From an uncultured Candidatus Saccharibacteria bacterium (GTDB lineage: Bacteria > Patescibacteriota > Minisyncoccia > 2-02-FULL-40-12 > GWA2-44-9), in contig CAZAUE010000001.1 of NCBI GenBank assembly GCA_964488565.1, forward strand, positions 42,687 through 106,686: DNA of 64,000 bases, written 5' to 3'. Position 1 is the first letter of the stretch. Each line of letters starts with the position of its first letter. The notes under the pieces were generated by a model. It was not told the DNA's origin and ran no database searches. It was given only the letters and a program-made list of their open reading frames with translations. Shown one piece after another: positions 20,918-62,778 of the stretch. The translations under genes and the position numbers were made by a program.

Positions 20918-21011
20918 AACAGTGGCAGGCGTTAGTCACTTTATTAATACCCCAATTTTAACACAAAAAAACAGGCAAAAAATGTGCCTGTGGACAAATT
21001 GAAAGTAAAAA

Positions 21012-21045
21012 AAGAGGAGGCGCCATAGCGCCTCCTTGATGGTTC
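21012..21045 (-). terminator. Intrinsic terminator of GC-rich cassette A
   Basis: Perfect 8-bp stem GGAGGCGC-CAUA-GCGCCUCC, followed on the minus strand by CUCUUUUUUUAC. Confidence 0.6.
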
Positions 21046-21056
21046 GGGGTCGGTTC

Positions 21057-21605
21057 TTAGAAATTGAACCTGACTCCGGCGACCCCGCGACCATCGCCGA
21101 TGGCATAGGTTCCCCAGAGGGCAACCTTACCAACCGACACTTGGACGTAGGGACCGGTTCCGATGAACCGCTGGCTGTTCACGCCGACGGCGACGGTCTT
21201 GGTCATCTGGAACGTTCCCAGATAGCGATACCAATAACCGCTTCCGCCGTGTTCGTGGAGGGAAAGGAGCGACCATCGCCCCGAGCCGAGCCACACGCTA
21301 CCGCCACCACGAAGCGGGTTGTCGGCAGTCTCCAGTCCAAGACTAGCAGACACCTCCACCCACTCGGCGGGAGCGTACGTGAGGCCGGCGTAGCCCTCAC
21401 TCCACTCCTCAGATGTCAGCGTCCAAGCCGACCATCCAAGTTTGCCCTTGAGTGGGCCGTGGACGTAGACGTTGAGCTGAGGCGTAACACCTTCCTCGCT
21501 CACCGTGTTGAACGACTCAACGTACCCAGAGGCCTGCTGAGCCTGAGCAGTCACGACCGTGAGGGTCATGATGATCGTCACGAGAACGAGTTTTGTCAGC
21601 TTCAC
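21057..21605 (-). CDS. GC-rich (~60%+) ORF encoding a signal-peptide-bearing outer-membrane beta-barrel-like protein (GTG start). Foreign or anomalous cassette A.
   Basis: Signal peptide MKLTKLVLVTIIMTLTVVTAQA. Alternating aromatic/Gly beta-strand pattern and a C-terminal ...GVRFNF ending in Phe, as in Gram-negative OMPs. A SD sequence AAGGAGAGAG lies 6 nt upstream, with its own promoter and terminator. Confidence 0.55.
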   Translation of the reverse strand: MKLTKLVLVTIIMTLTVVTAQAQQASGYVESFNTVSEEGVTPQLNVYVHGPLKGKLGWSAWTLTSEEWSEGYAGLTYAPAEWVEVSASLGLETADNPLRGGGSVWLGSGRWSLLSLHEHGGSGYWYRYLGTFQMTKTVAVGVNSQRFIGTGPYVQVSVGKVALWGTYAIGDGRGVAGVRFNF

Positions 21606-21663
21606 TGTCTCTCTCCTTGCCCCTGAATGGGGCGGTTTTCAAACATCTAACCTTAATACCTAT

Positions 21664-34502: not shown

Positions 34503-34546
34503 GTATAAAGTATATCATAAATATTAAAAAACCGCCTCCGGAGAGC

Positions 34547-34590
34547 GGGAACCAAGATATCTGGTTCCGCCCTCCGTGGCGATCATGCGC
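34547..34590 (-). terminator. Intrinsic terminator of cassette B
   Basis: Long GC hairpin (core GGAACCA-N8-UGGUUCC with extended outer pairing), followed on the minus strand by UUUUUUAAUAUU. Confidence 0.45.
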
Positions 34591-34609
34591 GACGCGATGT
34601 CCGTCGGCG

Positions 34610-35029
34610 CTACTTTCTCGGCGTGACGGTCGGAACCACACTCTGTTCCGACTTCACGCTGAGGTGGTACTGCCACACCACGTAGGTGTAGCCGGGGTAG
34701 GTCACGTCTTCCACCACGCGGGTGGGGACGGTGGCGACGACCTTCCGAACCGTGCTCGGAGGCAGGCTGTCGACCTCTTCGATCAACGGCATGCCTCGGT
34801 CGTCACGAACCGGGACCACCACGGACGTCCGCGGAAGCGAGCGGTCCGCGAAGTCGAACACGCGAGCGTCGCCTCCGCCCTTGATCGTGGCCTTGTAGGT
34901 GAACGCCAAGGCGTACACCTTGTTGGTCTCGATGCCGTCGCCCCGCCCGAAATTGGCAAAGGCGATAATGGACACGACGGCCACGACAAAGATGGTGGCG
35001 ATGAAAACGAGAACGCGGGTCCGATTCAT
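34610..35029 (-). CDS. GC-rich (~65%) ORF encoding a 139-aa N-terminally membrane-anchored hypothetical protein (cassette B)
   Basis: SD AAGAGG 7 nt upstream; N-terminal TM (VLVFIATIFVVAVVSIIAF). Composition (R/V/T/P-rich) and codon GC are unlike host genes. Confidence 0.5.
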   Translation of the reverse strand: MNRTRVLVFIATIFVVAVVSIIAFANFGRGDGIETNKVYALAFTYKATIKGGGDARVFDFADRSLPRTSVVVPVRDDRGMPLIEEVDSLPPSTVRKVVATVPTRVVEDVTYPGYTYVVWQYHLSVKSEQSVVPTVTPRK

Positions 35030-35094
35030 TTCTGCCTCTTTCTGTTATGCCCCCTAAGGAGCGGTTGGTAAGGGTCTAAATCAACTCTGTAATT

Positions 35095-35131
35095 ACATTA
35101 TAGCACAAAATAACACCGTTTGTCAACCCAA
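35095..35131 (-). promoter_or_regulatory. Sigma70-like promoter for cassette B (TTGACA-N19-AATAAT), with a leader sharing the AGGGGGCATAAC motif with cassette C
   Basis: On the minus strand: TTGACAaacggtgttattttgtgcTAATAAT. The leader ...CCTTAGGGGGCATAACAGAAAGAGGCAGAA precedes the ATG. Confidence 0.4.
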
Positions 35132-36335: not shown

Positions 36336-38078
36336 ATGAAAACAAAACTCATCGCAGTCGCCATAATCACTTCGGCTACAATTTTAGCAATTGCCAGCGT
36401 CTGGAATGATTCTCCTGTTGTTGATGAAATTCCTCACATCGGTGCAGGATATTCTTATGTCGTTGAACGTAGCTACAAATTTAATCCAGAACATCCACCA
36501 TTGGTCAAAGACCTTGCTGGACTGGCCATGTTAACACTAAACCTTGATCGTTCAGCATTTGGTAAAACTTATCAAAAAAATTGGCCCACTGATGTTAATG
36601 GTGAATGGAATTTCGGACGAACTTTAATTTTTAATTCTGGTAATGATGCCTTAACCTTGGTTCGTGTTGCCAAGATGCCAATGCTATTATTCTTTATCAT
36701 CTCCGGCTGGTTAATATTTCTTTGGACAAAAAAGATTTATGGCCCTCGAGCTGGTCTCTTAGCTTTATTTTTGTTTTCATTTACACCAACAATTCTTGCA
36801 CACAGCCGACTAGTCACAACTGACATGGCAGCTCTTTTGGGAATTATTCTTTCAACTTATTTCTTTGTTCGCTATCTTAAAGATCAGACAAACTACAATT
36901 TCTGGTTAGCAGCTATTACTTTTGGAATCGCTGAACTAGCTAAATTCTCAACTTTCTTTCTCGTTCCTTATTTTGTTTTGGTAGGTATTATTTGGGGATA
37001 TGCACACCACCATAGCTTACGATATGTAGTTCTCGGGGCATGGAAAAGCATTCTTGTAATTGTTGTTGGTTTTATTTTTGTTGTCGGGCCTGTTTACCAA
37101 CTACACCTCCTTGGCGATACTCCTGAAAAACAACAATCGGATTCTGAGATTATTCTTGCAACTTATGGCAACCGAATTCTTGCTGACCCAATAATCTGGG
37201 CCTCCGACAAACCTTTCTTGCGACCTTTCGCTCAATATGGCTTAGGGCTACTAATGGTTGTCCAGAGAAATGTTGGTGGCAACCAAACATATTTCCTTGG
37301 AGAACTCTACCAACACGGAGTAAAACCGTATTTCCCAGTAGTGTATTTCATAAAAGAACCACTACCATTTTGGGGATTGTTTCTAATTGCAATTATTGGT
37401 TTTCTCGCATACGCACGACCAAGAGAACGCAAACTGCATGAATGGGTAAAAAATCATTTCACCGAGGTCACACTTCTCTTGTGGCTACTTATTTATTGGG
37501 CTCTTAGCATTACCGCCAACGTTAATATTGGTATCAGACACTTAATTCCTGTTTACGGTTTTACTTATATCCTTTTGGCCGGACTACTGGTTTTTGTATA
37601 TGAAAAAATTAAAACCAAAAAATTATACCTGACTGTTGTGAGTCTGATGTGTGCTTGGTTTCTCATTGAAACTATCATGATATTCCCCTATTACCTGACT
37701 TATTTTAATCAAGCCGTTGGTGGGCCAGCTGGTGGTCACAAATACGTTGTTGATTCAAATCTTGATTGGGGTCAGGACTTAAAACGTCTTGCTGATTGGG
37801 TTGAAACTAATAATGTACAAAAAATCAGCCTCGATTATTTCGGTTGGGCTGATCAATATTACTATTTGGGCAACAAATTTTATTGGGTCAATCAAGGAAA
37901 ATACACAACCAAAGGTCAATTTATTTCTGATAATCCATTTGGTGGGTACTTGGCCGTATCTGGTACTTACTACACAGAATCCCAGGTTAAACCAACACGC
38001 CCCTATGCATGGCTCAAAGATCATAAGCCAATAGCTGTAATCGGAAATTCAATCTTTGTCTGGTACATTCCTCAGTAA
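36336..38078 (+). CDS. GT-C fold glycosyltransferase, ArnT/PMT (dolichyl/undecaprenyl-phosphate-sugar dependent)-like
   Basis: The first periplasmic loop carries the DE motif (VVDEIPHIGAGYSY). Multiple TM helices plus a large C-terminal soluble domain. Confidence 0.65.
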   Translation: MKTKLIAVAIITSATILAIASVWNDSPVVDEIPHIGAGYSYVVERSYKFNPEHPPLVKDLAGLAMLTLNLDRSAFGKTYQKNWPTDVNGEWNFGRTLIFNSGNDALTLVRVAKMPMLLFFIISGWLIFLWTKKIYGPRAGLLALFLFSFTPTILAHSRLVTTDMAALLGIILSTYFFVRYLKDQTNYNFWLAAITFGIAELAKFSTFFLVPYFVLVGIIWGYAHHHSLRYVVLGAWKSILVIVVGFIFVVGPVYQLHLLGDTPEKQQSDSEIILATYGNRILADPIIWASDKPFLRPFAQYGLGLLMVVQRNVGGNQTYFLGELYQHGVKPYFPVVYFIKEPLPFWGLFLIAIIGFLAYARPRERKLHEWVKNHFTEVTLLLWLLIYWALSITANVNIGIRHLIPVYGFTYILLAGLLVFVYEKIKTKKLYLTVVSLMCAWFLIETIMIFPYYLTYFNQAVGGPAGGHKYVVDSNLDWGQDLKRLADWVETNNVQKISLDYFGWADQYYYLGNKFYWVNQGKYTTKGQFISDNPFGGYLAVSGTYYTESQVKPTRPYAWLKDHKPIAVIGNSIFVWYIPQ

Positions 38079-38087
38079 AACAAATTA

Positions 38088-38600
38088 AAGCGCCCCGCCA
38101 GATTTCTCCAGCGGGGCGGTCGTGCCGTCTTCTTCCGTGCCTGTTGCGCGTCTGTGCGGTATCTTTGTCGATGGCTTACAGAGGCCTCGGCTCTGGGCCA
38201 TAGGAGCGCCACTTGCATGTGCCTCCTAAACGCGGGTTGCAGATTGCCTGTGTGGTTGGTTCCGGTGCCAGCTTACAGGACCTTCTTTCCTGTGCTGGGT
38301 GCCGTATCGCGACGACGTACTCTCATGTTCCCCCTTCTGAGGAGGGTGGTGGAAGGGGCGCGCACCGCCCCTTCCAAGTGGTTGTGAATCCCTCGCCGTT
38401 TAGCGGCGGGAGACCGGGTTATCCACCATTCCCCGTGGGTTAACAGAACGTAGGTGCGAAGACTCGTCCGCCACCGTCCCGTTCTGTGCACAGTCCAGCG
38501 TGGCGATAGGTTCACAAGAGGCTTATCGCGAGATTGCTCTCGGACCTCCTTGTCCCTTGTCGCCACGCCGGACCGTCTTGTTGGCTCTCTAACTTAGAGC
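38088..38600. other. ~500-nt GC-rich (~62%) non-coding block with dense hairpin potential. Possible structured RNA or foreign DNA; identity unresolved.
   Basis: Only overlapping composition-driven ORFs on both strands, none protein-like. Perfect hairpins include CGCCCCGC...GCGGGGCG (38091-38118) and GGAAGGGGCG-CGCA-CGCCCCUUCC (38352-38375). A long-range ACAGAACG...CGUUCUGU pairing is possible. Confidence 0.35.
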
Positions 38601-38831
38601 CCGAAAAAAACCAGCAAATTACGACTACCGAACTACCTTAGAGCGACTATGGATGTCCTTACCCCTATTCCTTCAGGCCAATTATTATTACTTGAATGCC
38701 TGGATATTGAGATATTTACGAGGTGTTTGCTGGCTTTTTTCGAGCCCTTTTTAGGAGCCCGATATGTAAAGAACTTAGTGTTTTTAAAGTATAGCAGATA
38801 GCCATAACAATGTCAAGTACTAAGATTTAAT

Positions 38832-38863
38832 AATTAAATAGGGCCATGCGCTTCGCGCGCATG
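38832..38863 (-). terminator. Intrinsic terminator of cassette C
   Basis: Perfect palindrome AGGGCCAUGCGC-UUCG-GCGCAUGGCCCU, 13 nt after the stop codon, with an A/U-rich tail on the minus strand. Confidence 0.55.
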
Positions 38864-38875
38864 GCCCTCACTTCC

Positions 38876-39226
38876 TTACTCGTCTTCGTCGACGACGTCG
38901 TCTTGGACCTGGAAATCGGTCCTTGAATCGACGATGTCTTCGAGGGGGACGAATGGCTCGTTCAAAGCCCACTCGTCGCGGGTCTCGACGACACGTCGCA
39001 CGTGACCCCAATAGCTCTCGCTGACGATTGCCTTGGACTTGAAGGTCTTGCCGATGCGCCGAGTGCGGAGGCGATCATTGCGAACAATCCGCGCCTCCTC
39101 GTCAACGACTTCGGGCGTGAACGTCGCCGTTGCGAAACAACCGGACTGACTGCGGTTCTCAGGAACGAACGTCCCTTCGAATTCGCGCGTCATCTCGGCT
39201 GCCATCCTCTGGGCTCGTGAACTCAT
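38876..39226 (-). CDS. GC-rich (~62%) ORF encoding a 116-aa acidic hypothetical protein (cassette C)
   Basis: SD GGGGGT upstream; the start overlaps a 1-codon minimal ORF (ATGTAATGA). Acidic C-terminus (QVQDDVVDEDE). Confidence 0.45.
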   Translation of the reverse strand: MSSRAQRMAAEMTREFEGTFVPENRSQSGCFATATFTPEVVDEEARIVRNDRLRTRRIGKTFKSKAIVSESYWGHVRRVVETRDEWALNEPFVPLEDIVDSRTDFQVQDDVVDEDE

Positions 39227-39271
39227 TACATACCCCCGTCGTTATGCCCCCTTGGGCTTGATTGAAAACAA

Positions 39272-39300
39272 CTATTCCACAATAATACACCAAAAATGCC
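39272..39300 (-). promoter_or_regulatory. Sigma70-like promoter for cassette C (TTGACA-N17-TATTAT)
   Basis: On the minus strand: TTGACAaaatggcatttttggtgTATTAT. The leader contains AGGGGGCATAAC, as in cassette B. Confidence 0.45.
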
Positions 39301-39332
39301 ATTTTGTCAATCTTGGTGTTTAGGTCTCGCTA

Positions 39333-40145
39333 TTATTTGTAATAAACTCTCCCATCAATCCTTAAGTCTATATATTGTGGATGGAAGTCGAGGTCTTTTT
39401 CCTTATCATCCAAGAATATCCTCAAAACATCTAGCTGATTCTTAATATCAAATTCCGTTGTAAAAATAATGTAATAATCAGAGGTAAAAACACGAAACTC
39501 ACCAAATGATTTTTCTGGAATTATTATGCTCTTTATTTCTCCGGCCCTATTCTTTGCAACCTCCATTATTGGTTCAAAAAAATCATTATCAATTTGTCTG
39601 TGATTTGTTTCCCTTCGATCTTCAATTGTCAGAAATATGAAACCGGAAGTTTTAGATGATTCACCCCAAAGAACTCTATCCTCATCAAAATAGGAACAAC
39701 TTGTGGTAAGTGAGACGGAATCACTATCTCTAAAACACCAGATACCTGATGGCTTTCTTTCAATAAAATTTAGAGCCAGTCCGTGAGGTAGTTTCTTTTT
39801 AACGGTCACAGATTTAAACACTGAATAACCTGAAGAAAATTTTTCTTCAATAGCATCAGTGTCCACGGATAAAACATTATTTCTTCGTGGTAGAAACTTG
39901 AATATCTTTTGATCTAACTGTTCATTTATTTTTCCCTGAAGCATGTTTGAATTAATTGTATCCAAACCATTAAAACTCACCTCTCTTACATCAAAAAGTC
40001 TTGAAAAGAAAAAAATATAAATCAAACCCGCCACAACAAAAATTGTCCCTGCTATTATTGCTACAGTTTTAAAAACAAAAACCCGGCGATGCCGGCGCGC
40101 GACTTCATCGCGATGATTTAACTTTTTTACATTTACCGGTCGCAT
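39333..40145 (-). CDS. FtsQ/DivIB-like cell division protein (POTRA domain)
   Basis: Basic cytoplasmic N-terminus, one TM helix, then a POTRA-like stretch FDVREVSFNGLDTINSNML. Confidence 0.5.
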   Translation of the reverse strand: MRPVNVKKLNHRDEVARRHRRVFVFKTVAIIAGTIFVVAGLIYIFFFSRLFDVREVSFNGLDTINSNMLQGKINEQLDQKIFKFLPRRNNVLSVDTDAIEEKFSSGYSVFKSVTVKKKLPHGLALNFIERKPSGIWCFRDSDSVSLTTSCSYFDEDRVLWGESSKTSGFIFLTIEDRRETNHRQIDNDFFEPIMEVAKNRAGEIKSIIIPEKSFGEFRVFTSDYYIIFTTEFDIKNQLDVLRIFLDDKEKDLDFHPQYIDLRIDGRVYYK

Positions 40146-40148
40146 GGA

Positions 40149-41435
40149 CTATTTAATTTCTTTTATCCCACCCATGTACTTGCGGAGAATCTTAGGAACC
40201 TCAATCGTACCCTTCTTTGTTTGATAGTTCTCAATAATAGCGATAATGGTTCTTCCAATTGCCAAAGCGGTGGCATCGTTCATGTGTACGAACTCGGAAC
40301 CATTTTGTCTTTTTACTTTAGTTCCCAATCTTCGTGATTGATAATCTGTCATTAAGTCCGCAGTATGTGTTTCTCTGTATCTATCCTGGCCAGGCATCCA
40401 CATTTCCAAATCTATCTGTCTAGCATCAGGACCACCCATATCACCGGTACAAATTGCCACCACCTGATAAGGTATGTTTAATGACTGAACCAAATGCTCT
40501 TGCATAGCTACAAACAAATTCTGTTCATTTATTGAGTCCTCTGGCAAGCAAAATGATTCCATTTCTAATTTATCAAACTGGTGAACTCTTAATATGCCTT
40601 TCATGTCTTTACCATAGGAACCGGCCTCTCGTCTAAAAGCGGTTGAATAACCAATATACCTGATTGGTAAATCTTTCTCATCAACGGTTTCATCCATATG
40701 CATGGCACCAAGAGTGTGCTCAGCACTACCAACAAGATACATGTCATCAGCTGGCATATAATATCTTTCTTCTTTGGGCTCAAGACGAGCCATTCTCTGC
40801 ATAGAGTCCGGTCTTATCAATACGGGAGGAATAACGGGCACAAACGGAGTTGTCTTTAGGTTTAATTTATTGTTTTTGATTATTTTCTTAATAAGTTTCT
40901 CGTCCGTAAAAACAGACATGGCATACTGAACAAGAGCGAACTGCATTAAAACCAACCCTCTCTTTAAATATGTAAATCTCGCACCTGAAACCTTTGATGC
41001 CCTCTCGTTATCAATCAAATCCAAAGTCTCGCCAATTTCCCAGTGCTCTTTGGGTTTAAAATCAAATTCTCTCATCTTCCCCCATTTTCTAATAACCTTG
41101 TTTTCGGATTCATCTTTTCCGATTGGTGTGTCCTCGGTGGGAATGTTCGGAGCCATCATCATCATCTTTTCGTAATCTTCCTCAACGCATTTCAATTCGC
41201 TTTCTATCAATTTAATTTTTTCTTTCAACGCCTTCAATTCCTCTAAATCAACTGGAGATTGTGGGCCCTTAGAACGTTTATTCTGCTCCGATTTCAATAA
41301 TTCTGATTCGCTCAATAGGTGTCGACGTCTTTCATCTAAAGCCAACAATTTATCCAAATCCAAAGGAGACTTTTTGTTTTTGATAGCCTCTCTGACTTTC
41401 TCTATATTGTTTCTGATGAATTTGATATCTAACAT
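40149..41435 (-). CDS. serS: Seryl-tRNA synthetase
   Basis: N-terminal coiled-coil arm (MLDIKFIRNNIEKV), class II motif 2 FRREAGSYGKDMKGILRVHQF, and motif 3 region. Confidence 0.9.
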   Translation of the reverse strand: MLDIKFIRNNIEKVREAIKNKKSPLDLDKLLALDERRRHLLSESELLKSEQNKRSKGPQSPVDLEELKALKEKIKLIESELKCVEEDYEKMMMMAPNIPTEDTPIGKDESENKVIRKWGKMREFDFKPKEHWEIGETLDLIDNERASKVSGARFTYLKRGLVLMQFALVQYAMSVFTDEKLIKKIIKNNKLNLKTTPFVPVIPPVLIRPDSMQRMARLEPKEERYYMPADDMYLVGSAEHTLGAMHMDETVDEKDLPIRYIGYSTAFRREAGSYGKDMKGILRVHQFDKLEMESFCLPEDSINEQNLFVAMQEHLVQSLNIPYQVVAICTGDMGGPDARQIDLEMWMPGQDRYRETHTADLMTDYQSRRLGTKVKRQNGSEFVHMNDATALAIGRTIIAIIENYQTKKGTIEVPKILRKYMGGIKEIK

Positions 41436-41453
41436 AATTTAAAAATTAGTTAA

Positions 41454-42911
41454 TTATTCTTTTGGTTTCATTAGTGGGAAAAATACAATTTCTCTCACGG
41501 GCCTATTCATCAAGAATGCGAAAAATCTTTCAGACATTCCAAATCCTGCTGTAGGTGGCATTCCATATTCCAATGTTTCCACAAAGTCTTCGTCCATTCT
41601 TTGAGCTTCTTTATCTCCGGCTTCGCCAAGTTTCGCCTGTTCCTCAAATCGTTGACGCTGATCAATCGGATCGTTTAATTCAGAAAATCCTTTGCCCAAT
41701 TCTGTGCCTCCGGCCACAACCTGAAATCTTTCAACTCGATTTAAATCTTTCGGATATCTTTTAGCGAGAGGCTCAATCTCAATAGGCGGTAAGACCAAAA
41801 ATCCCACATCATTCAAATGAGGTCTAACTTTCTTTTTGAAAACTACATCAATAAGCCGACCTTTTCCAAGATGTTTATCGGCATCTATTCCACTATCTTT
41901 TGCGTAGTTTACCAAATCCTCTTCTTTAACCTCTTCAAGTTTAAGACCTGTATATTTTTCAAATTCTTCATAGTAATCATAACGCTTCCAAGAAGAACCC
42001 CAGTTAATAGTCTTCTCTTGATACTGATGTTCGGATGTTCCCAAAGTTTCTTCCACCACGTGTTTAAACAATCTTTCAATAAGTTCCATTAACTTTTCGT
42101 AATCATAATAAGCCCAATACATTTCCATCTGGGTATAATCCTGCAAATGTTCCCTATCAATTCCCTCGTTCCTGAAAATCCTTCCAATCTCAAAAACCTT
42201 CTCATATCCAGCTGTTATCAATTTCTTCAAATTAAGTTCTGGCGAAATTCTCAAAAATAAATCTATATCCAGAGCGTTCATGTGAGTTTTAAAAGGTTCG
42301 GCATCAGCTCCTCCTGGAATTTGTTCCAAAATCGGAGTATCAACTTCAAGTCCACCTTCTTTTAACAAAAACCCTCTGGTCGCTTGCCAAAATTTAGATT
42401 TTTTTACAAACAATTCTTTCTCTTCAGGATTCATTATTAAATCAAGGTATCTTTTGCGAAGTTTTTCTTCTACATCCTGAAGACCTTCCCATTTTTCAGG
42501 AAGAGGCAGGAGTGCTTTTGTAAGCAAGGAAAAAGATTTAGCTTCAATCGTTTTTTCTTCTCGTTTTGTTTTAAATAATAAACCCGTAACTTCAATAAAA
42601 TCTCCAATATCTATAAGTCTGCCAAATTTATCAAATTCCTCTTTGCCGACAGTTTCTTCTTTTACTAATACCTGAATTTTGCCCGAACCATCATTTAAAT
42701 CTAAAAAGGCCATGGCGCCCATATTTCTTAAAGCTCTAATGCGACCAGCGAGAATGAGTTCTTTCTGAGATTCACTCCAAGAATCAAAATTATTAAGTGT
42801 TTCTTCAATAGAATGAGTACGCAAAGAAATCGCAGGATATGGATCTGTTCCAGATTTCTTTAGTTCCTCAACTTTATCAATTTTTATATTACGAATTTCA
42901 TCTAACGCCAT
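41454..42911 (-). CDS. lysS: Lysyl-tRNA synthetase (class II)
   Basis: OB-fold N-domain (GRIRALRNMGAMAFLDLND...IQV), motif 2 FEIGRIFRNEGID, motif 3 GLGMS region. 485 aa. Confidence 0.85.
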   Translation of the reverse strand: MALDEIRNIKIDKVEELKKSGTDPYPAISLRTHSIEETLNNFDSWSESQKELILAGRIRALRNMGAMAFLDLNDGSGKIQVLVKEETVGKEEFDKFGRLIDIGDFIEVTGLLFKTKREEKTIEAKSFSLLTKALLPLPEKWEGLQDVEEKLRKRYLDLIMNPEEKELFVKKSKFWQATRGFLLKEGGLEVDTPILEQIPGGADAEPFKTHMNALDIDLFLRISPELNLKKLITAGYEKVFEIGRIFRNEGIDREHLQDYTQMEMYWAYYDYEKLMELIERLFKHVVEETLGTSEHQYQEKTINWGSSWKRYDYYEEFEKYTGLKLEEVKEEDLVNYAKDSGIDADKHLGKGRLIDVVFKKKVRPHLNDVGFLVLPPIEIEPLAKRYPKDLNRVERFQVVAGGTELGKGFSELNDPIDQRQRFEEQAKLGEAGDKEAQRMDEDFVETLEYGMPPTAGFGMSERFFAFLMNRPVREIVFFPLMKPKE

Positions 42912-42969
42912 GGATTAATAATATCAGAAATAAACGAAAATGCCACAAATAATTAGTGTTTTATTGAAC

Positions 42970-42999
42970 TTGACAAATCGGTATTTTATATGCTATAAT
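42970..42999 (+). promoter_or_regulatory. Consensus sigma70 promoter (TTGACA-N18-TATAAT) upstream of cassette D
   Basis: cTTGACAaatcggtattttatatgcTATAATac; the GC-rich leader begins ~40 nt downstream. Confidence 0.5.
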
Positions 43000-43080
43000 A
43001 CAAGTACGTTCAGTGACAGGTCGTTAACAAGCAAGTCTGTAAACCCCCGCCAGTCAGGCGAGGGGAAGAAGGAGTCAGTC

Positions 43081-43530
43081 ATGAAGATTCAGGCCAGCCT
43101 CGTCTCGATGTCGAAGAACCAGAAGCGCGCCATGGTCACCGTGACCACGGGCGAGGGCGCCCACCGCCGGTCCACCACCCGCCACATCGGCTTCACGGAT
43201 GGTGCATGGTTCGGTCACAACCCCGACGAGCGAGCAGTTCCGCTCAACCGGCGCTACACCGCCGAGCTCCTCGCCGCCAAAGGCGACCTCGCCGGCGAGC
43301 AGGCGACGCTCACCCAGCTCGAGGAAGAACTCCTCAAGCTGGAAACGACCGAGCCGACGACGGAAATGGACACGGCCATGATCGCCGGCTACAAGGCCGA
43401 GCTGGCCGAGGCCATCAGCGAGGCCAAGGCCCTGGTCAACTTCGCCGAGGCATCCGTCGCCGAAGCCGAGCTCAAGCTCCACATCGTCGAGAAGGAAGTG
43501 CCGCTCGAAGTCGAGTTCGGCATCTTCTAG
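43081..43530 (+). CDS. GC-rich (~64%) ORF encoding a 149-aa hypothetical protein with a C-terminal coiled-coil/alanine-rich helix (cassette D)
   Basis: Strong SD GAAGGAG 9 nt upstream of ATG. Protein MKIQASLVSMSKNQKRAMVTVTTGEGAHRR...AELAEAISEAKALVNFAEASVAEAELK. Composition unlike the host. Confidence 0.5.
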   Translation: MKIQASLVSMSKNQKRAMVTVTTGEGAHRRSTTRHIGFTDGAWFGHNPDERAVPLNRRYTAELLAAKGDLAGEQATLTQLEEELLKLETTEPTTEMDTAMIAGYKAELAEAISEAKALVNFAEASVAEAELKLHIVEKEVPLEVEFGIF

Positions 43531-43549
43531 ACATCGTCGACACCTACCA

Positions 43550-43610
43550 AGCCCGCCCTTTCCCACATTCTTGATTGAATCACTGGGAAAGAGCGGGCTC
43601 TTTCATTTTC
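43550..43610 (+). terminator. Intrinsic terminator of cassette D
   Basis: 16-bp stem AGCCCGCCCUUUCCCA...UGGGAAAGAGCGGGCU (one bulge), followed by CUUUCAUUUUC. Confidence 0.55.
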
Positions 43611-43636
43611 AAAAACCCTGTCAGCAGACAAGCAAA

Positions 43637-43660
43637 GGGCCCCACAATGGGGCCCTTTTA
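43637..43660. terminator. Bidirectional intrinsic terminator (serves greA on the minus strand)
   Basis: GGGCCCC-ACAAU-GGGGCCC flanked by AAA and UUUUAAAAUU. Confidence 0.6.
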
Positions 43661-43680
43661 AAATTCAAGAATATTTAGAT

Positions 43681-44139
43681 TTAGCTAATCTCAACGATCT
43701 CATATGCCACAATTCCTTTAGGAGCTCTGACTTCAACCTTATCCCCTTTTTTGTGTCCGAGAAATGCTTGACCCATTGGAGATTCATTGGATATAAATCC
43801 TTTGGCTGGATCTGATTCGGCTGCTCCGACAATCACAAATGAACGTACACCATCCTTAGATTCAACTTTTATTCCGGAACCAACACCAACAGTCCCACTA
43901 AGATTGTTTCCGGTTATTATGACAGCACTTTCTAGTGTGCTTTTTATATCTTCAATTCTGCCTTCATTCAGAGCTTGAGCTTCTTTGGCCGAATCGTATT
44001 CTGCATTTTCAGACAAATCTCCCAATTCTTTAGCTTCTTTAATGCGCTGAGCTATTTCAGGACGCATAACATTAAGCCTGTCTTCCAGCTCTCTTTTTAA
44101 CTTTTCCAGTCCTTCTTTTGAAAAATATTGATTATCCAT
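43681..44139 (-). CDS. greA: Transcription elongation factor GreA
   Basis: N-terminal coiled coil with GDLSENAEYDSAKEAQ, plus a C-terminal FKBP-like domain. 152 aa. Confidence 0.9.
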   Translation of the reverse strand: MDNQYFSKEGLEKLKRELEDRLNVMRPEIAQRIKEAKELGDLSENAEYDSAKEAQALNEGRIEDIKSTLESAVIITGNNLSGTVGVGSGIKVESKDGVRSFVIVGAAESDPAKGFISNESPMGQAFLGHKKGDKVEVRAPKGIVAYEIVEIS

Positions 44140-60832: not shown

Positions 60833-60917
60833 ACCCAGTAGTGAGTTTTCCGAAAGTTTTTAGCGACCTTGTCGCAATCGAAAAATCTACTACTGGGCAA
60901 ATGCTCTGTTAAAAAAG

Positions 60918-60943
60918 AGGGGGCGACTTCGTGTCGCCCCTTA
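60918..60943 (-). terminator. Intrinsic terminator of cassette E
   Basis: GUCGCCCC...GGGGCGAC stem, followed on the minus strand by CUCUUUUUUAAC. Confidence 0.6.
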
Positions 60944-60953
60944 AGTCTGGTCG

Positions 60954-61106
60954 CTACAGTGTGTGGCCAGATTTCTCGGACTTCCGTCGGCGGTTCGCCC
61001 GCCGAGCGGCCTGCTTCCGAGCCCAGCTCATGCCACCCTGGCTGGACTGGCCGTACTTGTGAAGCTTGTGCAGGTGTCGTTTCACCCGCATTTCACGTTT
61101 GGTCAT
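60954..61106 (-). CDS. GC-rich ORF encoding a 50-aa highly basic protein (cassette E, gene 2)
   Basis: My own translation gives MTKREMRVKRHLHKLHKYGQSSQGGMSWARKQAARRANRRRKSEKSGHTL. SD GGAAGGGGG lies 6 nt upstream. It is below the ORF-track cutoff. Confidence 0.45.
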   Translation of the reverse strand: MTKREMRVKRHLHKLHKYGQSSQGGMSWARKQAARRANRRRKSEKSGHTL

Positions 61107-61124
61107 TTCTATCCCCCTTCCTAG

Positions 61125-61373
61125 CTAGTCGTTGACGGCGTCGACGGCGACAGCGCCCGCCCAAGTCGCTTCTCCAGCGATCTTGCGCAAAACAGCCATC
61201 AAGCCGTACTTCTGCGCATAGGCCTTCGCGGCCACCGAATCGCCACGCTTCAGGATACGACGAAGCTTGCGCTCCGACGTCCTGGCGAAAGCCGGCGCAA
61301 ATTTTCCGTTCCGGCGTCCGGCCGAACCGGGCTTGCCCTTCTTGCCTTCCTGACCCTTCTTCTCGGTCCCCAT
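61125..61373 (-). CDS. GC-rich ORF encoding an 82-aa basic protein (cassette E, gene 1)
   Basis: SD AGGAGGG 6 nt before the ATG (MGTEKKGQEGKKGKPGSAGRRNGKF...). It begins 19 nt after the stop of the upstream host membrane-protein gene. Confidence 0.45.
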   Translation of the reverse strand: MGTEKKGQEGKKGKPGSAGRRNGKFAPAFARTSERKLRRILKRGDSVAAKAYAQKYGLMAVLRKIAGEATWAGAVAVDAVND

Positions 61374-61392
61374 CTGACCCTCCTCATGAATA

Positions 61393-62778
61393 CTAACGTT
61401 GTCCCAAGATTGTATCACTAAATTTTAGTGATGTCAACCCAAAGCTCAACAAAGACAGCGTGAGCCAAAAGATGAATCTTCCCTGCTGAAGTGTCCACAA
61501 GAAGTGGTCAAATAAACCAAAGAATAGAAAAGATAGAACTATGAGCAAAAAAGAATAATGGTATAACTTACTCATTTTTGTTCTCAAGATGAAATCCTTA
61601 ATAAGGAGAAGCAGAAAAATGGCAAACACAGTGATGCCCAATATTCCATTCTCTGAGTAAATCAGGAGATAAATATTGTGTACTGGCTGATAAAGATTAC
61701 GCGATAAATTTTGATCTTTAGTCATTAGCCAATCAACAAAATTACCGGAACCAACTCCAAACCAGTTCAAGGACTTTAATGATTCTTTGTTGTAAAAAAT
61801 TCTCAGTTGAACAGCCTCCTCCCCAGAAGATATCTTTACCCGACTAATCGCTTCGGGCCAATAAAACACCGAGAAACCAGAAGTAACAATGAGTGTTGTT
61901 ATAAATATTAGAGCTAATTTTTTATTCCAATACTCTTTCCCGAACTTTAAGCGCACGAGGATAATTCTTATCAAAAAATTAATAAACAGAATAAATATTG
62001 CTACTCGTGCAAAGGTAAAAAAGAAGGCTAAAAGAGTTAATCCGAACACGAACAGGTAAAATTTGCTTATATTCTTGTAGATCCATAGATAATAAAAAGC
62101 AAAAATTGCCAAAAATAAATACGCGGCCAGAATATTCGGATGGGGCGTGGTGCCATAAGCACGAATAATCTTTTCTCCTGCCATGTTGTAAAAAGATGCG
62201 ATACCAGACATGTTGAGCCCAATAACACTTTCCCCGAGTAACCTGAGACCCAAATCCGATTGTTTAAAAAATTGAAGCACTGCGATTATTGCCTGAAATA
62301 ATCCCCCAGCAATAATAACCATCAGTGAATTGCCAAAACCAAATCTCGTCACAGCATAATTCTTAATATAAAGATAAAATAAAATAAATTCCAAAAGTTT
62401 TATCCAATTATAGAAGGCAAGTTGAGGACTAATAGCGTTTCTGATTGAAACCGCCGAGATAATAATGAATAAGGCCAGAAAAAAATCTGGTTTTTGGATT
62501 AGGTGTTTGGTGTTAGATATTGAGGGTTTAAAAAAATTAGCATAATACTTGATATTGAATATTTGATACGTCTTCGGAGAATTCCCAAGCCAAAACAAAA
62601 ACAAGATCAAAAGCAGTAGGTCTGTTGCGTACAAAGACGCCGACTGCCATTCATTAAAATTCCAGCTCTGATGCCACAAAATTTTCCGTACCTGAAACGG
62701 AATAGCAAATAACAGAAAATAAAATAAAAATTGTTCTGACCTATTTAACAAATAGTGCATAGACAATACCCGCCCCAA
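61393..62778 (-). CDS. Polytopic membrane protein, O-antigen ligase/Wzy-like
   Basis: 461 aa with at least 10 TM helices and a large loop. The family assignment is tentative. Confidence 0.4.
   Translation of the reverse strand: MGRVLSMHYLLNRSEQFLFYFLLFAIPFQVRKILWHQSWNFNEWQSASLYATDLLLLILFLFWLGNSPKTYQIFNIKYYANFFKPSISNTKHLIQKPDFFLALFIIISAVSIRNAISPQLAFYNWIKLLEFILFYLYIKNYAVTRFGFGNSLMVIIAGGLFQAIIAVLQFFKQSDLGLRLLGESVIGLNMSGIASFYNMAGEKIIRAYGTTPHPNILAAYLFLAIFAFYYLWIYKNISKFYLFVFGLTLLAFFFTFARVAIFILFINFLIRIILVRLKFGKEYWNKKLALIFITTLIVTSGFSVFYWPEAISRVKISSGEEAVQLRIFYNKESLKSLNWFGVGSGNFVDWLMTKDQNLSRNLYQPVHNIYLLIYSENGILGITVFAIFLLLLIKDFILRTKMSKLYHYSFLLIVLSFLFFGLFDHFLWTLQQGRFIFWLTLSLLSFGLTSLKFSDTILGQR

Follow-up and report, generated by a model that had tools for sequence, protein, structure and literature searches.

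A vertically inherited, GC-rich single-gene unit between lysS and greA in Candidatus Yanofskybacteria

Introduction

Phage morons are described in the lambdoid-phage literature as autonomous units of promoter, gene and terminator which sit between conserved genes and differ from their neighbours in composition. In bacterial genomes, atypical GC content is routinely read as recent horizontal transfer, and the synonymous sites of small-genome symbionts are usually assumed to drift with mutation bias. Known stabilisers of mRNA include the 5' untranslated region (UTR) of ompA, the leaders of ermC and aprE, the STAB-SD of cryIIIA and terminator hairpins. Here, we describe a locus that can be compared with each of these. 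It is found in a 64-kb stretch of contig CAZAUE010000001.1 (the whole stretch is referred to as the window) and is called cassette D. Between lysS and greA, cassette D carries in order a promoter, a 75-nt leader, the sequence AAGGAG, an open reading frame (ORF) of 149 codons, which we call gene X, and a terminator hairpin with 16-nt arms. Cassette D is a genuine transcription unit with one gene, located on the chromosome of a member of Candidatus Yanofskybacteria (Paceibacteria, candidate phyla radiation), and gene X is a vertically inherited counter-case to the usual reading of atypical GC. Its GC content at third codon positions (GC3) is about 0.85 as against about 0.3 around it, and the surprise lies in the long-term upkeep of an inverted codon usage in a reduced symbiont genome.

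Cassette D resembles a phage moron in that, as judged by sequence, it has its own promoter and terminator around a single ORF. Furthermore, it stands between two genes which are only 59-67 bp apart in the relatives L014 and L011 (L-numbers denote homologous loci or contigs from other assemblies), and its GC content is 0.65 as compared with 0.39 for the window. Unlike a moron, it is surrounded by housekeeping genes (lysS, serS, greA, PBP2 and mreBCD), it has no phage, PHROG or IMG/VR match, it has been inherited vertically over long distances and its odd composition is maintained and not decaying. With horizontally acquired islets it shares atypical GC content and codon usage as well as a patchy presence among relatives. 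In contrast to such islets, neither a donor lineage nor mobility genes nor flanking repeats were found, the synonymous divergence (dS) and phylogeny of gene X agree with those of its flanks, and the composition is family-wide, including members at other loci.

The likeness to mRNA stabilisers consists of a stem-loop beside a strong ribosome-binding site and a very stable 3' hairpin, both of which show compensatory changes. The differences are that the 5' hairpin lies about 38 nt from the predicted transcript end, that the whole coding body is GC-recoded and that any stabilising role is predicted only. No description of maintained GC3 islands in genomes of the candidate phyla radiation was found in the literature, a search whose coverage was incomplete and which is therefore weak evidence.

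Orthologs and inheritance of gene X

The gene order around gene X is PMT, ftsQ, serS, lysS, X, greA, PBP2, mreD, mreC and mreB. In at least eight related genomes the slot between lysS and greA was found to hold gene X (L006, L007, L009, L012, L089-L091, L093-L094 and L098), and in L092 gene X adjoins lysS on a contig that stops before greA. Amino acid identity to the window is 88% for L007, 55% for L006, about 50% for L009 and about 39% for L012. Gene X is absent from L011 and L014, where the gap between greA and lysS is 67 bp and 59 bp respectively, and from more distant relatives. A sequence-only reading of this region had named clear homology to a housekeeping family with orthologs at this locus in related genomes as what would speak against it; the orthologs at the locus were indeed found, and membership of a known housekeeping family was not.

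Gene X is under selection as a protein-coding gene. Between the window and L007, we observed a nonsynonymous divergence (dN) of 0.092 and a dS of 0.415, which gives a dN/dS of about 0.22, and the differences at the first, second and third codon positions are 0.108, 0.068 and 0.25. The dS of greA in the same pair of genomes is 0.508, and because the two values are similar gene X shares its history with greA. The pairwise identities of gene X and GreA are correlated across eight genomes (Spearman 0.75), with gene X evolving faster, its protein identity being 39-59% where that of GreA is 86-93%. Gaps in the protein alignment are always of whole residues, the frame is open in all orthologs and a serine switch from TCG to AGC was observed. 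These results show that gene X has descended vertically together with lysS and greA and that purifying selection acts on it. An antisense ORF of 163 residues, called as a gene in one assembly, was rejected as coding since the substitution pattern does not fit its frame; its register puts most of the variation at its own codon position 1, which makes it a by-product of the high GC3.

Homolog searches with gene X returned unnamed proteins of about 150 residues only. An exhaustive profile search gave 97 cluster representatives at E<=1e-3, and a scan of metagenome contigs for the family gave a single locus, which is a duplicate of L009. The family, which is uncharacterised and has members of about 150 residues, is found so far only in genomes of candidate-phyla-radiation type. 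No phage, plasmid or IMG/VR match was obtained, the phage search covering 50,697 phage records. No direct or inverted repeats bracket 42970-43610 and the neighbourhood contains no integrase or transposase genes.

Occurrence in independent assemblies

The sequence-only reading had presented the unit as a cassette, a framing which implied a recent, foreign or artefactual insert. This implication is refuted by assemblies that span the unit, by the orthologs in the same slot, by a dS on a par with that of greA and by a divergence which tracks GreA. Contig k127_491562 from Rifle groundwater is 100% identical to the window. A look-up of exact protein matches also assigned the window to metagenomes of Rifle aquifer groundwater, where a 113-kb contig matches 37681-50139 at 100% identity; identity is 99.9-100% in several other assemblies. 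Genomes retrieved by their GreA from a set of species representatives place the lineage in Candidatus Yanofskybacteria, a group of the Parcubacteria/Paceibacteria. Both composition junctions are spanned in three independent assemblies from different samples, L002 at 100% identity and L003 and L008 at more than 99.9% with at most three differences, and the junctions are therefore not chimeric. Diverged orthologs of gene X (30-88% identity) were found in JGI 3300027835 and 3300025150, in PRJEB22302 and in Logan runs. A recent insertion, an assembly chimera or a synthetic construct might be suspected from the textbook-like promoter and terminator, from the abrupt break in composition and from three contigs which begin or stop within it (L001 at its start, 43059; L004 and L005 at their ends, 43169-43175). 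Against the identical or nearly identical (two to three differences) sequence across both junctions in three independent assemblies, and against diverged orthologs from unrelated projects, this explanation is effectively refuted.

We noticed that near-identical strain contigs differ at few positions and that several of these (43043, 43117-43118 and 38234) are within GC islands. Among them are a change of the leader motif GTAAAC to GTAACC and an adjacent double change which gives N13G. Public contigs that carry GC-island genes are mostly 1-5 kb long and often break in or beside the islands. These strain differences and contig breaks could be microdiversity or an effect of assembly or coverage.

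Base composition and codon usage

The coding region of gene X (43081-43530, plus strand) consists of 149 codons followed by TAG at 43528-43530, in agreement with the 149-residue ORF of the sequence-only reading, and has a GC content of 0.65 and a GC3 of 0.89. Along the locus, GC content is 0.29 at 42800-42999, 0.61-0.69 at 43000-43499 and about 0.40 by 43600. The turn to GC-rich sequence about 40 nt downstream of the promoter, which had been noted earlier, was located near 43040. The GC-rich stretch extends from the leader hairpin to the terminator; the first 38 nt of the leader are about 42% GC, the promoter is AT-rich, and lysS and greA show no gradient toward the gene.

The composition was observed to be a property of the gene wherever it occurs. 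In eight orthologs the coding GC content is 0.61-0.66 and GC3 is 0.79-0.89, while the rest of each locus has a GC content of 0.37-0.43. Host genes in the window, including frr and mreB, have a GC3 of 0.22-0.43, and this distribution does not overlap with that of the islands. Host dS between the window and L006 is 1.3-1.8, which is saturated, and the GC3 values of gene X in these two genomes are 0.89 and 0.86. Members at about 30% identity were found to be GC-rich as well. As an example, the member at L099, located beside rplU in another genome, has a GC3 of 0.79 with neighbours at 0.29-0.37 (one ORF of 63 residues has 0.55), and L098 in the lysS/greA slot has a GC3 of 0.73 with neighbours at 0.31-0.38. 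The GC3 of L096, at another locus, is 0.72 with a neighbour GC3 of 0.51, and that of L097, on a short contig, is 0.64. GC-richness is therefore a conserved trait of the whole gene family and not the trace of a recent arrival, and since a GC3 of 0.8-0.9 persists everywhere beside saturated neighbours with a GC3 of about 0.3, the composition is actively maintained.

Third positions in the orthologs are occupied by C (0.41-0.54), G (0.29-0.42), A (0.06-0.16) and T (0.03-0.10), and 17 of the 37 third-position differences between the window and L007 are exchanges between G and C. Polarised substitution counts were not used to assign direction as the outgroup is saturated. Codon usage is the inverse of that of the host, with gene X using the rarest host codons: 119 of 137 leucine codons are CTC or CTG, the host favouring TTG, TTA and CTT, and arginine is mostly CGC or CGG where the host prefers AGA. 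The amino acids of the family are also of the GC-rich type, with GARP residues at 0.29 and FYMINK residues at 0.23 in 89 proteins as compared with 0.22 and 0.32 in host proteins.

Promoter, leader and terminators

A sigma-70-type promoter is located at 42970-42999 on the plus strand. TTGACA (42970-42975) is followed by an 18-nt spacer and an extended -10 element, TGcTATAAT, with TG at 42991-42992 and TATAAT at 42994-42999. The TTGACA-N18-TATAAT promoter read from the sequence alone thus stands at its place, with a score of 12/12, and it is the best and the sole 12/12 site in a scan of 41-46 kb. On both strands of the whole window, two sites score 12/12 and nine score at least 11/12, where an estimated 0.1 or so perfect sites would occur by chance in 64 kb. 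Both 12/12 promoters, and five of the nine best matches, directly precede GC-rich islands. From the promoter spacing, the transcription start of gene X is predicted near 43006. The pattern TTGACAAA..GGT...TGCTATAAT was found to be kept in L007, L093, L012, L009 and L089, and all orthologs have TTGACA(AA), a spacer of 17-18 nt and hexamers like TGCTATAAT. A gene call of 196 residues from the ATG at 42940 is an artefact because this start lies upstream of the promoter.

Gene X and lysS are divergent since lysS starts at 42911 on the minus strand, as had been proposed. We noticed that lysS (42911-42946, minus strand) is seemingly leaderless or nearly so and without a Shine-Dalgarno sequence. Its ATG is separated by 6 nt from the end of a -10-like TATTAT, which has TG before it, and a AAAATnCCACAAAT block upstream of lysS is kept in the orthologous loci.

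The leader of about 75 nt (43006-43080, plus strand) comprises a 5' block, GTAAAC, a hairpin and the ribosome-binding site. The block ACGTTCAsTGAC at the 5' end and GTAAAC at 43039-43044 are invariant. In total, 34 columns are invariant among eight orthologs, with synonymous sites near saturation, and the arrangement GTAAA(C)-hairpin-GAAGGAG is also present in the distant members L096-L099, which are about 30% identical. The 5' block was searched as a possible regulon motif and occurs once per locus, upstream of gene X only, and no enrichment of CGTAAACCC was observed in the window. The stem-loop CCCCCGCC-AGUCA-GGCGAGGGG (43044-43065, plus strand), obtained by folding the single sequence, abuts the ribosome-binding site. 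In the RNAalifold consensus its CCC/GGG base is invariant and the inner pairs vary on both sides (CG, GC and AU), and in L009 complementary inserted sequence lengthens the stem by about 11 bp on each arm, with one bulge. The Shine-Dalgarno region GAAGAAGGAG (43065-43074, plus strand) has its core AAGGAG at 43069-43074, 6 nt before the ATG, which bears out the strong site that had been claimed, and GA(A/C)GAAGGAG is invariant among the orthologs. Rfam gave no relevant match at E<=5 in 37950-43750, a range which includes the leader, the coding region and the 3' hairpin, and at the gathering score one tRNA and nothing else was found in the 64-kb window.

The terminator stem-loop (43550-43611, plus strand) has 16-nt arms at 43550-43565 and 43584-43599 (inverted repeat I1), an inner ATTC/GAAT stem, a UUGAUU apical loop and the U-rich tail CUUUCAUUUUC. 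The arms are 94% complementary, the folding energy is -30.2 kcal/mol (z = -6.2) and CTTTCATTTTC comes directly after the structure, so that the terminator of the sequence-only reading was recovered as well. The hairpin is kept in five lineages, among them L007, L089, L092 and L093. Its outer stem shows compensatory changes, L092 has ACTC/GAGT in place of the inner ATTC/GAAT, and the UUGAUU of the apical loop is retained. The hairpin is absent in L006, L009 and L012. A second hairpin, AAAGGGCCCCA-CAA-TGGGGCCCTTT (43634-43663, the perfect hairpin itself being at 43634-43658, no strand assigned; inverted repeat I5), is 100% complementary and flanked by runs of A and T, and it is probably a bidirectional terminator shared with greA, which lies on the minus strand. 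In L006, L009 and L012 this second hairpin is the sole terminator after gene X.

Most orthologs have TCACTG twice, once in the leader 5' block (TTCACTGACAA) and once on the 3' side of the terminator loop (AATCACTGGGAAA). The window and L007 carry the inverted form, CAGTGA, in the leader, and this could pair with the 3' copy (43006-43019 with 43584-43599). The pair of motifs may be a shared binding site, a means of end-to-end pairing or a coincidence.

Structure of the coding mRNA

The minimum free energy (MFE) of the coding region was compared with that of sequences in which synonymous codons were shuffled within each gene, the protein and the codon usage being kept. All of the nine orthologs had a negative z-score (-0.5 to -3.4; mean about -2.2). 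The scores of three host genes were -0.6, -1.4 and +0.7, and three of the sister units in the window, cassettes A, B and C, gave -4.4, -4.6 and -1.6. The folding energy of gene X is about -0.43 kcal/mol per nt as compared with about -0.2 in host genes.

Within the coding region, a hairpin of the form GAGCG(G)G-loop-C(C)CGCTC (43228-43245, plus strand) overlaps the invariant DERAIPL motif. Its five predicted pairs are invariant in all eight orthologs examined, and codons 47-56 (NPDERAIPLN) are nearly invariant at synonymous sites. In the alignment overall, ten codon-invariant columns were observed where 2.9 would be expected from the codon usage of the family. This is weak and only suggestive evidence, as the pairs show no covariation and the sequences are related.

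Predicted protein

An AlphaFold2 model built from 12 sequences has a mean predicted local distance difference test score (pLDDT) of 90.2. The model has strands within residues 2-46, which form a basic five-stranded sheet, two helices (52-89 and 95-139) which pack as an antiparallel hairpin (about 88 residues), and a strand at 143-147; the long helical C-terminus foreseen from the sequence corresponds to the two helices. In an alignment of 34 sequences, P141 is invariant and V19, G24, S31, T33, H35, G45, N47, D49, A129 and F146 are nearly so. Most of the conserved residues belong to the β-domain or to the hairpin base, and the tip (88-96) is variable with insertions and deletions in both the 12- and the 34-sequence alignments. 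Of 34 family members, 33 have a basic N-terminal domain (+1 to +9), and close relatives have an acidic hairpin. The protein sequence shows no evident signal peptide, lipobox, membrane segment or hydrophobic stretch at the N-terminus.

The sequence-only reading had assigned no function, and this still holds: scans of Pfam, PHROGs, NCBIfam and PADLOC gave nothing above threshold other than coiled-coil noise, and a sequence-profile search of the PDB gave tropomyosin- and prefoldin-type coiled-coil noise only. Foldseek searches of the PDB and BFVD gave no hit at E<=1e-3, the matches being to helical hairpins of AcrA, MacA, FliJ and YscO at E>=0.01. The plan of a globular domain with a coiled-coil finger resembles that of Gre factors and DksA, as of the GreA encoded next door. 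Unlike the invariant acidic tips of those factors, the tip of the gene X protein is variable and has no invariant columns, and no Pfam or NCBIfam hit to GreA_GreB or DksA was obtained. The neighbourhood of greA had prompted the idea of a Gre-like role in the secondary channel of RNA polymerase, which we rejected in view of the unconserved hairpin tip. The hairpin also superposes on those of the adaptors AcrA and MacA, with TM-scores of 0.42-0.49 normalised to the query. In contrast to AcrA/MacA/HlyD adaptors, the protein has neither a signal peptide nor a lipobox nor any further adaptor domain, and the matches are sub-significant and limited to the hairpin: Foldseek gave E-values of 0.03 or above, and the score with the MdtA/MuxA profile is 18.4 bits where the cut-off is 391 bits. 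Pfam FliJ scores 13.5 bits against a cut-off of 28.4 bits, with weak hits in 4 of 34 family members, and unlike FliJ and YscO gene X has no flagellar or type III secretion genes nearby.

We infer that the product is a soluble protein whose basic β-domain would bind nucleic acid or a partner protein. In view of the conserved, gene-specific leader, the target of the β-domain could be its own leader RNA.

Explanations for the maintained composition

The best explanation, to which we give a probability a little above even, is that gene X is a lineage-restricted, vertically inherited gene whose GC-rich composition and expression module are under selection for a structured, stable and highly expressed mRNA. 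The family travels with its own conserved module, which consists of a near-consensus extended -10 promoter, the leader, the GC-rich body and one or two strong terminator hairpins; the maintaining force would be selection on the transcript. A structured, U-poor coding body held between 5' and 3' stem-loops may give a long-lived, nuclease-resistant mRNA. Together with a maximal promoter and ribosome-binding site, such stability may give a high output of the small soluble protein. A trans-acting factor probably binds the conserved leader as well, and this could be the basic β-domain of the protein itself; the protein probably acts through this β-sheet domain with the variable acidic hairpin projecting from it.

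Several points weigh against this explanation. Promoter strength, transcript ends and mRNA half-life are inferences from sequence, and the functional reading of the protein is likewise drawn from a predicted fold without a significant structural neighbour. Classical 5' stabilisers act at the 5' end, and the leader hairpin is some 38 nt away from the end predicted here. Two orthologs have weak MFE z-scores (-0.5 and -0.9), and the synonymous shuffle from which all the z-scores derive does not preserve dinucleotides across codon boundaries. RNAalifold gave no conserved global fold for the coding region, with a positive covariation term, and any structural selection would therefore be generic and not directed at one architecture. 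The rarest codons of the host should slow translation, which sits uneasily with maximal output. In addition, the GC enrichment is concentrated in the coding region and a translation-linked cause therefore fits equally well.

A cause of this last kind would be that GC-rich codons are selected for the control of translation, through dependence on rare tRNAs or through slowing, as a mirror image of the Streptomyces bldA/TTA system. The leucine and arginine codons, which are the inverse of the host preference, the enrichment, which is strongest in the coding region and not in the UTRs, and the recurrence of the same pattern in several unrelated small genes are all in its favour. The consensus promoter, the strong ribosome-binding site and the A/T-richer start region are suited to high expression instead, and control of translation leaves the excess mRNA structure and the GC-rich non-coding island R (see below) unexplained. 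The tRNA gene set is beyond the view of the 64-kb window, which contains one tRNA. On balance, we consider control of translation unlikely. That the functional product is a structured RNA, with the 149-codon ORF as a by-product of GC content, is disfavoured and very improbable. GC-rich DNA has few stop codons and long ORFs do occur on both strands here (163 residues antisense and 122 residues in another frame), some synonymous sites are conserved, and the neighbouring island R looks non-coding. The dN/dS of 0.22, the variation at third positions, the TCG to AGC serine switch, the whole-residue gaps, the open frame in all orthologs, the conserved ribosome-binding site and start codon and the confident AlphaFold2 model are however those of a protein-coding gene, and a conserved RNA fold was not found.

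If gene X had been acquired in an ancient horizontal transfer from a GC-rich donor, its composition would be a relic that has not yet drifted, which would suit the atypical composition and codon usage, the absence from some close relatives (L011 and L014) and the autonomous architecture with its own promoter and terminator. Such a relic should have faded between genomes whose host synonymous sites are saturated, and in both of them gene X keeps a GC3 of 0.86-0.89; the members of about 30% identity in other genomes and at other loci are equally GC-rich. The profile search gave small unnamed proteins, and a donor lineage of matching composition was not found, all of the recovered loci being in AT-rich or moderate-GC genomes of candidate-phyla-radiation type. 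The AT-rich promoter and the leader are conserved with the gene, so that a transfer would need to have brought them along too. Searches of phages, plasmids and IMG/VR gave no match, and flanking repeats were not found. Ancient transfer is accordingly disfavoured and rather unlikely. GC-biased gene conversion at a recombination hot spot, where exchange between strains raises GC content without selection, is disfavoured and quite improbable. It would fit the fast divergence of the protein, the position of several of the few strain differences inside GC islands and the frequent breaks of public assemblies in or near these genes. However, the strain differences are very few and may be due to assembly error, the boundaries are sharp (about 40 nt) and match the transcript in every lineage without a gradient into lysS or greA, the promoter within the unit remains AT-rich, and dS is similar to that of the flanking gene and not inflated. 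The known effect of GC-biased conversion in bacteria is a few percent of GC3 and not a rise from 0.3 to 0.87.

Other GC-rich units in the window

At least six GC-rich islands were found in the window, the others being located at 20999-21641, 34510-35075, 38053-38618, 38833-39273 and 60892-61419. Cassette B (34510-35126, minus strand) encodes a protein of 139 residues with an N-terminal membrane anchor and a β-rich domain, and has a GC3 of 0.85. It has the other 12/12 promoter and a leader hairpin, and its ortholog in L006 (1-420) is 62% identical at the amino acid level with the same promoter, a leader hairpin and a GC3 of 0.79. Cassette C (38833-39310, minus strand) contains an acidic-tailed ORF of 116 residues, and cassette E (60892-61437, minus strand) contains two small, very basic ORFs of 82 and 50 residues. 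Both are GC-rich, have 11/12 promoters and gave no family match; cassette C is missing from L006 and has a fragment-like match only in L011.

Island R (38075-38830, minus strand; 3190-3935 in L006) has its own TTGACA-17-TATACT promoter at 38816-38788. Its 5' part is AT-rich and conserved, its body is GC-rich and it has a terminator hairpin. The island, which is conserved in L006, folds with an MFE of -236 kcal/mol (z = -7.7). Rfam gave no match to it and ARAGORN found no tmRNA or tRNA in it, and from its sequence it looks like a structured non-coding RNA of about 700 nt.

Cassette A (21057-21605, within the island at 20999-21641, minus strand) has a GC content of about 0.6 and encodes a protein of 182 residues with a predicted signal peptide and 12-strand β-barrel. 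The AlphaFold2 model has a pLDDT of 90.3 and its best Foldseek hits in the PDB are the outer-membrane porins KdgM and NanC (E ~1e-5). Of the 38 sequence hits most are unnamed, and the two nearest that carry a lineage label are from Paceibacterota and Liptonbacteria genomes; the family is confined to genomes of Paceibacteria type. A predicted β-barrel is unexpected here since the lineage is generally thought to have no outer membrane.

The sister islands share the traits of cassette D, which is therefore one of a coherent set of autonomous, strongly promoted, GC-rich units. An extension of our preferred explanation, selection on the transcript, would be that Paceibacteria keep a dedicated class of GC-recoded mini-genes, with near-consensus promoters, leader hairpins and strong terminators, in which RNA-level selection holds the composition despite the small populations and AT-biased mutation to be expected in such symbionts. 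We offer this as a speculative proposal of low probability. Equally tentatively, the class in the window would take in the gene X protein, the porin-like 12-strand β-barrel, the membrane-anchored β-rich protein and the structured RNA of about 700 nt. One possible reason for such a class is survival under an AU-directed ribonuclease regime, such as the stress- or toxin-induced decay of bulk mRNA or the digestion of scavenged host RNA, and another is that the transcripts must work in a GC-rich partner cell.

If the pattern is general, it would point to strong gene-specific selection on nucleotide composition in bacteria of the candidate phyla radiation. A consensus promoter together with a GC3 island would then be a signature of what are probably the most highly expressed lineage-specific genes, which would be candidates for host interaction, and such islands should be labelled as foreign DNA or assembly artefacts only with caution.

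GC-rich or long intergenic stretches were also observed elsewhere in related Yanofskybacteria, at 10183-10863 in L009, 10300-10830 in L012 and 10192-11853 in L011. The gap between serS and ftsQ is an example of an additional slot in relatives, these two genes being adjacent in the window. Since relatives carry such stretches at other sites, the occupied slots differ between genomes.

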